Source of the DNA: a virus
Lineage: Duplodnaviria; Heunggongvirae; Uroviricota; Caudoviricetes
Virus record (IMG/VR): IMGVR_UViG_2609459852_000006
Direction: 5' to 3' (one strand)
Length of the DNA stretch: 7,115 nucleotides
Below are positions 266-7,115 of this stretch, in pieces. A model generated the notes under the pieces. That model did not search any database. It had not been told where the DNA came from and saw only the letters and a program-made list of their open reading frames with translations. Every line of letters starts with the position of its first letter. Position 1 is the first letter of the stretch. Made by a program: the position numbers and the translations under genes.

Positions 266-3200
266 TATGCAAGCCTCACAATATAGTTAAATGCGATGTT
301 TTTGACGGTGTTTTCCGCGTTACCAGCAGCGTTAACGGTGATGGTGTGTCCATGTGAACCAATCGCAACGGAGTGCGTATGAGCACCAATACCGACAGTA
401 TGCGCGTGTGCACCTGCAGATGCTGCTGTGCCGGACAGTGAGTGGCTATGATTACCATCTGTACTGGTATTAGCTAACCACCCCGTAGACATACCTACTG
501 AGCCTTGTACACCCCAGGTATTTTGACCTGAGCTTGTATAACCATATTGATAAGTATCTTTAAAAACACTGGGGTTAAATCGACGGCCATCTCTATGGCT
601 GTGATTACCAGCTGCATTCGTGCTGCCACTTAAACTATGGGTATGCGCACCAGTGTTATTCGTGGATTTAGTGCCGTAATCAAACGACGATGTGGTTTTC
701 GTCCCCAAATCCGTACTGGATGCGCTGGCGCTGTGGGTATGCGATTTAATGCCGTCCTGTTCCTGAGACAATACGGCCCGACCACTGGTAGGTTTGCCCT
801 TAATCGTCCAGCCACGCATATCAGGGATCACGCCTGACGGATAAGCCGCTGCAAGTTTCGGGTATGCAGATTTGTCAAAAGTCTGCCCCTGCATCAGGGC
901 ATAGCCAGACGGAACGGTATCTGATGGCCACGGGATTGGTGCGCCAGGCGGATAAAACTGCTCTGATGGCGTATAGAGTGAATAAACTGTACCGTCCGTT
1001 AACCCTTCCGGCTTATTAGCAGAATATGCTGGTGACGTATGAATCGTCACGCTGGCATTACTGGTATAATCCCATTGAATATTTACACCAGTCGCATAAT
1101 TTCCGATTGCAACGTAAATATCGTAAGTATCACCAGATGTATTGACCCAGGCAAAATTTGTAAACCCTGTCGATGTGCGCTGCCATAAAGCACCAGTAAT
1201 CCCCTTCGGATTACCATTACCTGCACGTAAAACAAGTTCAGATATACCTGCCTGTTGAGGTGACCCCACGTTAAATCCAGCGCCACCAATCAACGTAATT
1301 GAAACAACAGAACTCGCCTGTGGCATGGTTACCGTTGCTAATTTGAACCAACCAGCACCACCGCTGAATGACATTGTTGTTGAGTTAAGCGTACCAATAT
1401 CTTTCGGCGTCAGTGTTATATCCGCTGAAAGCGCCTTACCATTCACCTTACGGGCAGAAGGTACCCGACCATTCGCATTGTCATTAGCTGCTTTCACTGC
1501 TTTCGGTGTCGCAGCAAGCGTTTCAGATGTGCTGTTGGTTGCACTACTGAGCTGGACAATTCCTTTTTGTGCTGTCGTAGCGTCCTGTGCGGTGTATTTC
1601 CCGTTAGCCAGGTCATACGCGGCCTTAACGGCTTTTGGCGTTGCCGCCTGTGACTCGGAAGTGCTGTTAGTCGCACTGCTGAGCTGAACTATCCCTTTCT
1701 GTGCTGTCGTTGCATCCTGTGCGGTGTATTTCCCGTTAGCCAGGTCATACGCGGCCTTAACGGCTTTTGGCGTTGCCGCCTGTGACTCGGAAGTGCTGTT
1801 AGTCGCACTGCTGAGCTGAACTATCCCTTTCTGTGCTGTCGTTGCATCCTGTGCGGTGTATTTCCCGTTAGCCAGGTCATACGCGGCCTTAACGGCTTTT
1901 GGCGTTGCCGCCTGTGACTCGGAAGTGCTGTTAGTCGCACTGCTGAGCTGAACTATCCCTTTCTGTGCTGTCGTTGCATCCTGTGCGGTGTATTTCCCGT
2001 TAGCCAGGTCATACGCGGCCTTAACGGCTTTTGGCGTTGCCGCCTGTGACTCGGAAGTGCTGTTGGTCGCACTGCTGAGCTGTACTATCCCCTTTTTCGT
2101 CGTGCTCGCATCCTCAAGCGCCACGGCGGATGCAATATCCTCTGCCCGTTTTGCTGCTGTCTCGGCGCGCGTTGCCGCGGATTCCGCCGTACTTTTGCTC
2201 TGTGCTGCCGCTGCCGCACTGCCAGCAGCCTCTGTCGCCTTCGTGGATGCCGTCGTGGCGCTGCCCCTCGCTGCTGACGCCTGTCTGGTCGCCTCATCTT
2301 TTGAAGCAGACGCAGATGATGCCGATGACGCCGCCGAACTGGCGGACGATGCGGCAGCCGTTTTTGAGGATTCTGCGCTGGTTTCCGACGCTTTCGCGTT
2401 CGTTTCGGATGTCTTCGCTGCGGAAGCAGACCTCGCTGCTGCGCTGGCCTGTTCAGTGGCTTCGCCAGCCTTCGTTGTGGCTGTTGAAGCGGATGATGCG
2501 GCGCTTTCTGCCGATTTTCCGGCGGCGGTGGCACTGACTGCTGCCTCCTCTGCCTTAATGGACGCCTCACGGGCCGATGATGCAGCTGCTGTCTCAGAGT
2601 CTGCCGCAGCTGAGGCGCTCTGTTCCGCTGCCGTTTCAGAAGACCTGGCATTCGTCTCGGACGTTTTTGCCGCCTTCACGGAATTTCCTGCCGCCGTTGC
2701 CGAGGAGGCTGCACTGCTGGCGCTTGTGGAGGCGTTCGTTTCTGATGATTTTGCCGCCTCTTTGGAGGCCGCCGCATCTCTGGCTGAAGTGGCGGCTTCT
2801 GACGCTTTCGTCGTCGCAGTGGATGCAGAAGTGGCTGCTGATTTTTGTGACGCTGCAGCATTCGTTTCTGACGTTTTCGCCGCACCGGCACTGGTGGCCG
2901 CCGCGCTTTTTGAGGACTCTGCAGCGGCAGCACTTTTTGATGCTTCAGTGGCCTTTGTTGATGCCGTTCCTGCGCTGGAAGACGCCTCCTGAGCCGAAGT
3001 CGCGGCCTGTCCGGCTGACGTGCTGGCTGCACGCGCTGAGCCTGCAGCATCAGTCGCATGGGTTGCCGCCTCACGGGCAGATGTGCCGGCATCACTGGCT
3101 GACTTCTTCGCGGCTGCCGTGTTCTGTGCCACCGCGGACGCGTTACGCGTCACCTCTTCCACCATCAGTTCAAAACGGCGCAGAGCCTCCGGACGGGCAT

Positions 3201-3489
3201 CATCCTCCGTCATGGCACCGAGAAAATCATTCAGCGTACCGGGTCGGGAATCTTCATACACGGTGATGGTCCCGGCATGTGACGGCGGGAATCCTTCCAC
3301 CAACAGAATAACGCTGTACTGACCGTACTCAACGTCCATGCTGTAACGCCCGGCTTCATCCGGATTTTCTGAGGCCAGCGTGTTCACCACCACCGTGGTG
3401 CTGTTACGTTTTGCTTTCAGCTGGATTGTGCAGTTCTGTACCGGTTTTCCTGTGCCGTCTTTCAGTACACCTGAAATCTTTACTGCCAT
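265..3489 (-). CDS. stf: Side tail fibre protein (lambda Stf-like), intact 1074-aa single ORF; N-terminal tail-attachment domain, Ala/Ser/Thr-rich shaft, five tail-fibre repeats, divergent central segment, conserved HxH-rich C-terminal tip
   Basis: ORF track 265..3495 (-). The track's first codon is GTG at 3495..3493; the conserved start [26 protein letters not shown]... is the ATG at 3489..3487, preceded by GTGGGGTGAAT. The C-terminus ...[29 protein letters not shown] matches the lambda Stf C-terminus from memory. Stop TAA at 267..265. Confidence 0.95.
1480..2094 (-). repeat. In-frame tandem repeat inside stf: four near-identical 132-bp units (1567..1698, 1699..1830, 1831..1962, 1963..2094) plus a degenerate partial fifth unit (~1480..1566); each unit encodes a 44-aa tail-fibre repeat
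   Basis: The string gtgcggtgtattt recurs at 1587, 1719, 1851 and 1983, an exact 132-bp period. The two central units are identical by eye and the outer two differ at a few, apparently synonymous, positions. The protein shows [44 protein letters not shown] four times, then [29 protein letters not shown]. Confidence 0.9.
2095..3150 (-). other. Ala/Ser/Thr-rich low-complexity shaft region of Stf (approx. residues 115-465), GC-rich and internally degenerate-repetitive ([24 protein letters not shown] motifs recur)
   Basis: Translation is dominated by A, S, T, E and K with recurring short motifs. The same DNA yields several long spurious ORFs in other frames and on the plus strand (1988..2992, 2085..2651, 2130..2537, 2577..3266, 2676..3095), typical of GC-rich GCN-codon tracts. 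Confidence 0.8.
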
Positions 3490-3500: not shown

Positions 3501-3527
3501 AAAAAAGCCCGCCTGAACCGGCGGGCT
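3501..3527 (-). terminator. Rho-independent terminator between lom and stf (minus-strand orientation)
   Basis: GC-rich inverted repeat agcccgcc (3506..3513) / ggcgggct (3520..3527) with 6-nt loop tgaacc. On the minus strand the stem is followed directly by TTTTTT (plus-strand A-run 3501..3506). Lies 26 nt downstream of the lom stop. Confidence 0.7.
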
Positions 3528-3553: not shown

Positions 3554-4153
3554 TCAGAACTTATAACCGACACCCACGATGAAACCGTCAGTGCGCCAGT
3601 CGCCACTGCCGGAGCCTTCATAAGCAATATCAATGGCCACGGATTCGGTCGGGTTAAACTGCACGCCAGCTCCCCACGCCAGAGACGTGTTGCTGTGGCG
3701 ACCGTCATCACTTCCGGTCAGCACGTCGTGCGTTTTCCCCTTGTTGTCAGTTACGCGGAGATAATCCCCGGAGAAAGTCGACACACGGCTGTAAGCCACA
3801 CCCGCCATCGCATACGCGCTGAACCATTCATTCACGCGCACAGACGGCCCCGCCATTACGCTGAACCAGCGGTTACGAACGGAATCTTCATGCCAGCGAG
3901 TATCGCTGTAATGGGTCAGCTGGCGATTCTTGTCTCCTGCATAGCTGAATGACGTCACCAGCCCCAGCGTATCCGTAAACTCATAACGGTATTTCACGTT
4001 AATCCCGTTCAGATCATCACTGCCGGGAACGTTGGTCCGGGCATGAAGATACCCCGCGCTCAGCGTGGACTGATGTTCAGACGCCCATGCAGGCGCACCG
4101 GATACGGCCAGACAAATGGCTGCGGACAAAATGGCGGCACAAACTTTACGCAT
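3554..4153 (-). CDS. lom: Outer-membrane beta-barrel protein Lom (Ail/Lom/PagC/OmpX family), 199 aa with N-terminal signal peptide; lysogenic-conversion (moron-type) gene
   Basis: ORF track 3554..4153 (-): MRKVCAAILSAAICLAVSGAPAWA|SEHQSTLSAGYLHA...GFIVGVGYKF. It has a signal peptide with an AxA cleavage motif and a C-terminal aromatic residue (F) typical of OMP beta-signals, and is near-identical to lambda Lom as I recall it. RBS GAGAGG 5 nt upstream of the ATG. Confidence 0.95.
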   Translation of the reverse strand: MRKVCAAILSAAICLAVSGAPAWASEHQSTLSAGYLHARTNVPGSDDLNGINVKYRYEFTDTLGLVTSFSYAGDKNRQLTHYSDTRWHEDSVRNRWFSVMAGPSVRVNEWFSAYAMAGVAYSRVSTFSGDYLRVTDNKGKTHDVLTGSDDGRHSNTSLAWGAGVQFNPTESVAIDIAYEGSGSGDWRTDGFIVGVGYKF

Positions 4154-4174: not shown

Positions 4175-4201
4175 AATAAAAAAGGCGTCATTCCTGACGC
4201 C
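4175..4201 (-). terminator. Rho-independent terminator immediately downstream of J (minus-strand orientation; position corresponds to the terminator after J in lambda)
   Basis: Inverted repeat ggcgtca (4184..4190) / tgacgcc (4195..4201) with loop ttcc. On the minus strand it reads GGCGTCAggaaTGACGCC followed by TTTTTTATT (plus-strand A-run 4178..4183). Lies 23 nt downstream of the J stop (4226..4224). Confidence 0.65.
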
Positions 4202-4223: not shown

Positions 4224-7115
4224 TCAACGAATACTGATGCCGGAAGCCGCTTTTTTGGTCACAATCACCGTACAGTCGGTGATATTGCCTGCCCCCTGAT
4301 TGCCTTTCTGGAAAATCTTAAACTCCAGAGTGACGCTACCACCACCACTAGGCATATCAATAACTGCACTGTAACTACCGGGAATGGCCCCTTTAGTTTC
4401 TCTGGATGCGATTAATACGCCGTTTTTGCGAACTTCAAAACCATAACCCGTGTATCGCGTGCCTCCCGGGTTATTTCCGCTCCCCGGATCGTCATACGCT
4501 ATACCGTTAAAAATAATGGGCGGAATAATAATCTGGCGGTCAAAGTTATGATCATCGCTGATGGTGACTGTAACCGTACCGTTTGGTGTTTCCGTGTTAC
4601 CCCACGTACCGACTTTTTTCGGGAAGGCTTTTGATACAGCTTTAACGAAATCCCCTCTGACCTGGGTCGCCTCCAGCATGCCCTTAATCGTACAGTTTTC
4701 ATTTACCGTGACATTGTTGAGCGTTCCTGAGTTCGCATTCACACTACCACTGATATCCGCATTTTTAGCGGTCAGCTTTCCGTCTGATGTCAGGGAAAAT
4801 ACCGGAGGACTGCCACCGCTGGTAATGGTGGGGGCTGTCAGGCGCTTCAGGAACACGTCGTTCATGAATATCTGGTTGCCCTGCGCCACAAACATCGGCG
4901 TTTCATTCCCGTTTGCCGGGTCAATAAACGCGATACGATTGGCGGCAACCAGAAACTGGCTCAGCTTGCCTTCCTCCGTGTCCTCCATGCTGAGGCCAAT
5001 ACCCGCGACATAATGTTTGCCGTCTTTGGTCTGCTCAATTTTGACGCCCCACATAGCATTCCATTTATCGTTAGCGTCCTTCCACTCTTTCGAAAACTCA
5101 TCCAGTCTGCTGGCGTTATCCTCCGTCAGGTCGACTTTTTCCAGCAGCTCTTTACCGAGATGGGATTCGGTTATCTTGCCTTTGAAAAAATCCAGGTAAC
5201 CTTCCGCATCATCGCTCGCCCGACCGACGGCCTCCACGAATGCCGATTTGCCAACGGTGTTCACACTGCGGATATAAAAGTAATAATCATGGCCCGGTTT
5301 GATATTGATACTGGCGGCTATCCAGTACAGCCCCGTGCCAAGGTAGCGGGCTGTGGTTTCAACCTGCCTGATATCGGTAATCCGCGTTTCCGAGAACCAG
5401 AACTCAAACTGTACCGTCGGATCATAAACCGCAAGATGCGGCGTGGCGGTTATCTGAAAATAGCCCGGCGTCAGCTCAATCCGCGACGGCGCTGCCGGGG
5501 CGGCAATCCGGAACGATACCGACGCCGGATCGCCCTGCTGTCCCCGGGCATTTACCGCCCGGACCGTCAGCGTGTAACGCCCCAGCGCCAGTTGCCTGAA
5601 GCGGTAAGTGGTTTCCGTCGTCCGGGCCGTGCTGACCAGCCGCTCACTGCCGTCATCGGCGGCCACGGTCAGGCGAAGCATAAAGCTCACGCCCTTCACC
5701 ACCTTCGGCGTATCCCAGCGCGCCAGCACCTGGTATTCCCCGCTGTCTGCGGTGACTTCGGCGGTCAGGTGCTGCACCGCTGGCGGCGTGACACCATTCA
5801 CCGTGCCGCTCTGGTCGCCGTCAAAGTGCGCCCCGTTATCCACGATGGCTTCTTTTTCCGGTACATGCTGCACGGCGGTGATGGCATACGTGCCGTCGTC
5901 GTTCTCACGGATACTCACGCAGCGGAACAGGCGCTGGCGCAGCGTCGGCAGCTTCAGCCCCCACACGCTGTATTCAGCAACGCCGTCAGGAACACGGCTC
6001 ACTTTCACCTTCACGCCGTCGGTGACGGACTGAACCTCCACGCTGACCGGATTGCCACTTCCGTCAACCAGGCTTATCAGCGTGGTACCGGAGGATGGCA
6101 GCGTGATTTCACGGTCGAGCGTCAGCGTCCGGGTCTGGCTGTTTACCGCCAGCACGCGACCACCGGTGCTGATACCGGCATAGTCATCATCGCAGATTTC
6201 AATGACATCGCCCGGTACATGGCGAAGCCCTTCAGCACCCACGCTGAAGTCCACGGTCTGCGTTTCCAGCAGTTCCGTTTTAATCAGCCACAGCCCGGCG
6301 CGGTGCGCCTGCCCCCGGCTGGTACAGCCAAAGGCATCCATCTTCGTGACGTTACGACCGTAACGGGCAATGGCCTGCGTATCTTCAACAAGCTCTGTCG
6401 CCGTCTCCCAGCCGTTATCCGGGTCAATCCAGTTCACCTCAACGGCATTATGGCGGTCCTTCAGGGCGCTGAAACTGTAGCGGAACGGCGCGCCATCATC
6501 CGGCATCACCACATTACTGCGGTTATAGGTCCACACCTTATCTGATGGTCGGTCCTGCACGAACGTCAGCGTCTGCCCGTTCCATACCGGCATACAGCGC
6601 ATCGCCGAGCAGAAATCACTGAGCACATCCCACGCCTTACGCTGTGTGGTCAGGTAGGCATTACAGGTGATGCGCGGCTCCGTGCCGCCAAAACCGTCCG
6701 GCACTGACTGGTCGCAGTACTGGCCGATGACATACAGCGCCCATTTATCCACATCCGCCGCACCAAGACGTTTCCCCATGCCGTAGCGCGGGTGGGTCAG
6801 CATATCCCACAGACACCAGGCCATGTTGTTGCTGTATGCCGGTTTAAACGTTCCGTCCCAGATACCGCTGTATTGCCGCGTCTGCGGGTTATAATTCGAC
6901 GGCACCTGCAGAATGCGCCCGCGCAGATGATAATTACGGCTCACCTGCTGGCTGCCGAACTGCTCCGAATCCACCTGCACGCCGACCAGTGCCGTGTTCG
7001 GGTAGCCCTGTTTCACATCGATGATTTCGGTGTATGACGACCAGAGCGTTTTGTTCTGCAGCTGGTCTGTGGTGCTGTCCGGCGTCATCCTGCGCATCCG
7101 GATATTAAACGGGCG
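4224..7115 (-). CDS. J: Tail tip host-specificity protein J (lambda gpJ-like central tail fibre), C-terminal 963 codons; N-terminus lies beyond the high-coordinate edge of the window
   Basis: The ORF track shows 4224..7097 (-) starting at an internal Met, but the frame stays open to the window edge (7115..7098 reads RPFNIR before [30 protein letters not shown]...). Long stretches such as [33 protein letters not shown] and [40 protein letters not shown] match lambda J from memory. Stop TGA at 4226..4224. Confidence 0.95.

Follow-up and report, generated by a model that had tools for sequence, protein, structure and literature searches.

The C-terminus of gpJ determines host specificity (PMC3509688, PMC11101478). 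The stretch of DNA analyzed here (the window, 7,115 nucleotides from a virus of the Caudoviricetes, IMG/VR record IMGVR_UViG_2609459852_000006) carries a J gene that had been described, from the letters alone, as near-identical to J of phage lambda up to its last ~165 aa, and for these last residues a receptor other than that of lambda, LamB, had been predicted. The locus therefore raises the question of what kind of C-terminal domain the gene encodes, how the domain came to be joined to a lambda-like J and which outer-membrane protein it would recognize. The features of the window, with all genes on the minus strand, are as follows.

4224..7115, minus strand: J, tail-tip attachment (host-specificity) protein, partial; from the ORF and its translation, Pfam domains and alignment to the J proteins of lambda and 434
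4722..7115, minus strand: conserved J body, consisting of hub domains, FNIII/Ig domains, helical shaft and central straight fibre; from alignment
4685..4720, minus strand: mosaic junction in J; from base-by-base alignment and a 60-nt identity profile
4227..4721, minus strand: receptor-binding (specificity) cassette of J, 434 type, 165 aa; from sequence, Pfam, PDB and fold matches
4184..4201, minus strand: terminator-like hairpin and T-run directly 3' of the J stop codon; counterpart of the terminator that the phage 434 annotation places after J
3554..4153, minus strand: lom, outer-membrane beta-barrel of the Ail/Lom family, 199 aa, 434-type allele; Pfam Ail_Lom, 410 bits
265..3495, minus strand: stf, side tail fibre, 1076 aa; Pfam phage_tail_N, five copies of Phage_fiber_2, and Collar
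From 265 leftwards, minus strand: tfa, first 88 codons only

The 5' end of J is cut by the window edge, such that the first ~174 codons are absent and the 963 aa that are present correspond to lambda J residues 175-1132; the stop codon occupies 4224..4226. Segments that are 99.6-99.8% identical to the whole 7.1 kb are found in prophages of many E. coli chromosomes (among them EC93, O166:H15 JNE21-003 and RM10466), and identities of 95-96% are obtained with sequenced lambdoid phages (mEp460_ev081 and PhiR26_1, for example).

The mosaic junction in J

With lambda J (NC_001416) as the reference, the upstream 798 aa of the window protein align without gaps and are identical at 773/798 positions (96.9%), so that the near-identity originally noted for this part of J is borne out; the same body is 98.1% identical, again gap-free, to J of phage 434. 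The last 165 aa, for which translation of the ORF at 4224..7115 agrees exactly with the sequence first quoted (ending in ASGISIR), behave very differently. Here 65 of 171 alignment columns match lambda (38%; 64/155 or 41% when ungapped columns only are counted) and five indels are present, at lambda residues 1011, 1043, 1078, 1099 and 1109-1114. The contrast in identity between body and C-terminus is far above chance (Fisher p ~1e-70). The high identity to lambda J over residues 973-1132 that marks the LamB-type receptor-binding domain (RBD) is thus not seen, and the 38% that is found is far from the >90% that the original prediction had named as evidence against itself. What the two C-termini do share are the blocks TVTV..DDHxFDRQI, (V/I)DMPxGxG and KKxAxGIS, which had been noticed beforehand as scattered anchor motifs and which the alignment shows to be real conserved blocks.

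At the DNA level, identity to lambda calculated per 60 nt is 85-100% down to ~4686 and 33-63% thereafter, and in a base-by-base alignment mismatches first cluster at 4717. Together these values place the mosaic junction at ~4685-4720, an interval over which identity to lambda drops from at least 85% to ~50% or lower and identity to 434 remains at 92-100%, and the recombination breakpoint proposed near 4720 on the basis of the sharp switch is therefore correct to within ~35 nt. The value of 4720 that had been given for the end of the feature lies in the right region but is one base short, since in frame the cassette occupies 4227..4721, followed by the stop codon. Divergence from lambda extends beyond the end of J and takes in the intergenic terminator as well as most of lom, an extension absent from the original prediction; the divergent block ends at ~3633, and identity to lambda is back above 90% inside the final ~90 nt of lom. 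The cassette junction most likely arose by homologous recombination within the conserved J body, with the cassette acquired at the junction interval given above.

Several patches of lower DNA identity are also observed inside the J body, which is otherwise 95-100% conserved (5346..5405, 5526..5585, 5646..5705 and 5046..5105). Identity in the patch at 5346..5405 is 83% with lambda and 98% with 434, and in that at 5646..5705 it is 83-87% with both; such patches suggest that J is mosaic on a small scale upstream of the RBD junction as well.

Allele class, fold and prevalence of the C-terminal domain

The last 165 codons of J are of the phage 434 class of lambdoid central-tail-fibre RBDs. The encoded residues are identical to the C-terminus of 434 J (UMO75286) at 159/165 positions (96.4%) with no gaps, the six substitutions being V6I, E8Q, N47D, I136V, Q138H and G143R, and comparison with J of the sequenced lambda h434 imm21 hybrid gives 95.8% identity. 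Identities of 98-99% are found for the Stx2c phage 2851 (98.8%), several Stx-converting phages, mEp332, PhiR34_1 and others, with 2-3 residue differences from the window in phage 2851, mEp332 and PhiR34_1 and four in PhiR26_1. The host given in the records of mEp332, PhiR34_1 and PhiR26_1 is K-12 MG1655. Phage 434 has the same J-body junction, the same terminator and the same downstream lom allele as the window, with DNA identities of 92-100% across all three, but its stf is different, 1,314 nt in length (~437 codons) as compared with the much longer window gene of 1076 aa.

When the phage collection is ranked by identity to the window domain the records fall into discrete classes, with 74 at 90% or above, 169 below 60% and 0 between; lambda is at 38%. 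The gap argues for an exchangeable cassette rather than a continuum of drift, and a reading in terms of fresh divergence is rejected on its account. The earlier description of the C-terminus as diverged from the lambda domain is therefore accurate as far as the low identity is concerned, yet misleading as to its nature. Modularity of this kind has been described before. Maddamsetti et al. (2018), analyzing ~1,200 natural J homologues, found that residues 960-1132 constitute a 'specificity region', recombining and evolving independently of the remainder of J, and that indels at positions 1012, 1048, 1077 and 1107 define distinct J lineages (PMC6646904). The indels in the window fall on these four hotspots, and the window provides one more instance of the module.

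The cassette consists of a linker of ~25 aa followed by an Ig-like beta-sandwich. In Pfam it is recognized by PF12421, Ig_GpJ_C ('Tip attachment protein J, C-terminal receptor binding domain'), with a score of 88.7 bits (cutoff 26.2), the match extending over J aa 827-962 (window 4230..4637) and covering profile positions 1-134 of 135. Domains upstream follow the canonical order for J, FNIII-A_GpJ, Phage-tail_3, Ig_J, Ig_J_second and Phage_Tail_Tip, with Ig_GpJ_C last. Among PDB sequences the best relative in a phmmer search is A8 gpJ (9wca/9wcb, E=1.8e-34), and lambda gpJ (8xcj, 8iyk) is matched with E ~1e-24.

A monomer model of the RBD was calculated with AF2 from a shallow alignment of 11 rows; the word-indexed homologue search that served this small alignment yielded for the most part fragments that were short, partial or chimeric. 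The mean pLDDT is 76, with low confidence for the first 20 residues. Structure prediction for the last ~170 aa had been recommended as a check, and the model has the fold of the solved gpJ RBDs. The top four Foldseek matches in the PDB, 9wcb, 8xck, 8xcj and 9wca, have E ~1e-12 and query-normalized TM-scores of 0.70-0.71, and the next match, with E ~1e-3, is worse by nine orders of magnitude. Entry 9wcb is the 'open state of A8 gpJ 713 with OmpC' (OmpC of EDL933), 8xck is the closed form of lambda gpJ and 8xcj is lambda gpJ with LamB. In the model the indels relative to lambda map to inter-strand loops or their edges.

The window domain can be compared with two solved ones. The lambda gpJ RBD (residues ~973-1132) has the same Pfam family, Ig-like fold, fibre-tip position and core-strand motifs as the window domain, but it is the low-identity relative described above and its receptor is LamB. 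The A8 gpJ chimera, in which a natural prophage gpJ C-terminus has been grafted onto lambda J, binds OmpC and has been used for OmpC-targeted DNA delivery; its RBD is ~47% identical to that of the window (74/156) and belongs to a separate allele class with loop lengths of its own.

Of 5426 complete E. coli genomes, 2114 (~39%) carry DNA of the 434-type cassette, in up to 7 copies per genome and nearly always at 90% identity or higher, with 7 records at 80-90%. The LamB-type cassette of lambda is found in 98 of the same 5426 genomes (~2%), in all cases with at least 99% identity, and the five matches listed are all laboratory strains derived from K-12 or B/BL21(DE3). From these numbers the 434 type is the ordinary natural form and the lambda type is rare. 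The domain is accordingly a known allele of an exchangeable module that has been described before and offers no novelty; since what has been re-identified is the classical h434/OmpC allele, together with published J modularity, we attach little weight to it as a discovery. The prevalence counts may be of use in predicting receptors of lambdoid prophages or in the choice of gpJ for delivery vectors.

Probable receptor and proposed mode of binding

Lambda that carries the J/tail-fibre gene of 434 binds OmpC, the receptor of 434, and not LamB (PMC3509688, PMC11101478). Placement of the window domain in the 434 class on the basis of its sequence thus supports the original prediction of a receptor different from that of lambda and would supply its name. 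We consider it very probable, by analogy with 434, that the window RBD is an OmpC-binding domain with the same working mode as the lambda RBD, and a label such as '434-type, predicted OmpC-binding' for the central fibre of the prophage would be of value in annotation.

The mode of action that we propose is modeled on the solved complexes of lambda gpJ with LamB and of A8 gpJ with OmpC. In lambda the RBD is an Ig-like domain whose four bottom loops, L1-L4, insert into LamB's extracellular lumen, and on binding the RBD trimer is splayed at its base, with a signal that travels up the fibre and opens the tail tip (PMC11101478). By the same scheme, three copies of the Ig-like domain would make up the distal tip of the window fibre, with their bottom loops entering the extracellular mouth of the trimeric porin; binding would then spread the base of the trimer and signal up the fibre, leading to opening of the tail tip and DNA ejection. 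The conserved strands that hold TVTV..DDHxFDRQI, DMPxGxG and KKxAxGIS would maintain the fold and the trimer, and specificity would be set by the loops, which contain all five of the indels relative to lambda.

A classical hybrid bears on the assignment. The h434 host-range allele has been known since the 1960s-70s. In lambda h434 imm21, for which a sequence exists (OM418627), the crossover from lambda to 434 lies inside J, at nt 17619-17637 (aa ~705-711), so that the classical h434 allele includes the RBD cassette; downstream of the crossover 434 DNA continues through lom and stf. We have therefore rejected the hybrid as a map of host range to the RBD alone, since 434 lom and stf are carried as well, and regard it as consistent with the RBD being responsible.

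What doubt there is about OmpC derives mainly from the fact that sequence class and receptor are not related one-to-one. Other classes of gpJ also use OmpC, including A8 and 1A2 (PMC11338833) and phi330 (PMC12502783), and the RBDs of A8 and phi330 share only about 35-47% identity with the 434 class. For the exact allele of the window OmpC is most likely the receptor that is used. Literature searches for receptor data on the window sequence, mEp460, mEp332, the PhiR phages and phage 2851 returned none, and a 2026 receptor-prediction preprint covers virulent phages and not the mEp, PhiR or 2851 lambdoids.

The few residues at which the allele departs from its relatives deserve comment, as N47D, G127R, Q138H and G143R (relative to the versions in 434 and the Stx phages) are located in or beside loops that align with the lambda host-range hotspots. 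It is conceivable, albeit unlikely, that these changes tune the domain to OmpC alleles of wild E. coli, in which case the common '434 class' would be a set of sub-specificities that follow OmpC polymorphism. A more drastic version, in which the six substitutions relative to 434 direct the domain to a target other than K-12-type OmpC, such as OmpF, a porin unrelated to LamB or only certain OmpC alleles, appears improbable to us. Q138H and G143R do fall in the stretch aligned to lambda residues 1099-1104, beside the loop that aligns with host-range residue 1107; in lambda four point mutations suffice to add the use of OmpF (PMC6646904), and the gpJ chimeras A8 and 1A2 accept different OmpC variants (PMC11338833). 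However, mEp332, PhiR34_1 and PhiR26_1, all with MG1655 recorded as host, likewise have Q138 and G143 and differ at 3-4 residues, and the tight conservation of the class over its 2114 genomes argues for a single target.

A separate concern is whether the domain has any present function, as it would not if the prophage had decayed and could no longer be induced. Many lambdoid prophages of E. coli are defective, and with only 7.1 kb visible and J cut at the window edge the concern is a natural one. Nevertheless, the ORFs of J (as far as it is present), lom and stf are intact and the terminators are in place, the same 7 kb is conserved at 99.6-99.8% in many chromosomes and plaque-forming phages carry near-identical RBDs, so that we judge decay to be quite improbable; in any event it is a statement about activity and not identity and is compatible with the assignment of an OmpC-binding domain of the 434 type. 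Finally, retention of LamB binding, with the low identity to lambda reflecting neutral drift about a conserved binding mode, would fit the shared fold and core motifs of lambda gpJ but is very improbable given the five indels exactly in the specificity hotspots, the 38% identity, the discrete class structure and a near-identical 434 J that confers dependence on OmpC and not LamB.

The neighboring lom gene and side tail fibre

The product of lom is 96.5% identical to Lom of 434 and 45% identical to that of lambda. Because most of the gene lies inside the block that diverges from lambda we have asked whether the lom and RBD alleles vary together. Co-adaptation of the two was rejected, as their classes assort independently: Turner, 2H10 and Stx2a_JNE130812 combine RBDs of other classes (44-45% identity) with this lom allele (95-97%), and in 4A7 and Lambda_2G7a lom is missing from the corresponding place. 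The same lom beside unrelated RBDs, and its absence from some phages, indicate that the J RBD and lom are separate, adjacent mosaic units; lambda lom is simply another odd allele. A second GC-rich hairpin with T-run lies directly after lom (3506..3527, minus strand) and matches a terminator annotated in 434. Terminators thus follow both J and lom, which suggests that lom is a separate transcription unit.

Within stf, positions 1529..2091 (minus strand) contain a 132-bp tandem repeat in 4.3 copies with 97% matches, encoding a 44-aa unit that corresponds to the five copies of Pfam Phage_fiber_2. The corresponding segment of the best-matching E. coli chromosomes is 6851 bp long as compared with 7115 bp in the window, a gap of exactly two repeat units, and the number of repeats, and hence the length of the side fibre, therefore varies among prophages that are otherwise 99.6-99.8% identical. 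Stf residues ~140-460 (~2100..3100) form a long low-complexity stretch rich in Ala, Ser, Thr and Glu that yields long antisense or out-of-frame ORFs of up to 334 aa, for example on the plus strand at 1988..2992 and 2577..3266; these are almost certainly compositional artefacts and not genes.

The C-terminal ~229 aa of Stf (268..951) are 71% identical to the C-terminus of lambda Stf (orf-314), and the distal part of the protein contains a series of His-x-His motifs (GAHTHS, GNHSHS, GAHAHT, GAHTHS and GSHGHT). The Stf of Ur-lambda has been reported to bind OmpC (PMC11338833) and, by analogy, the J fibre and Stf of the prophage might both target the same porin.
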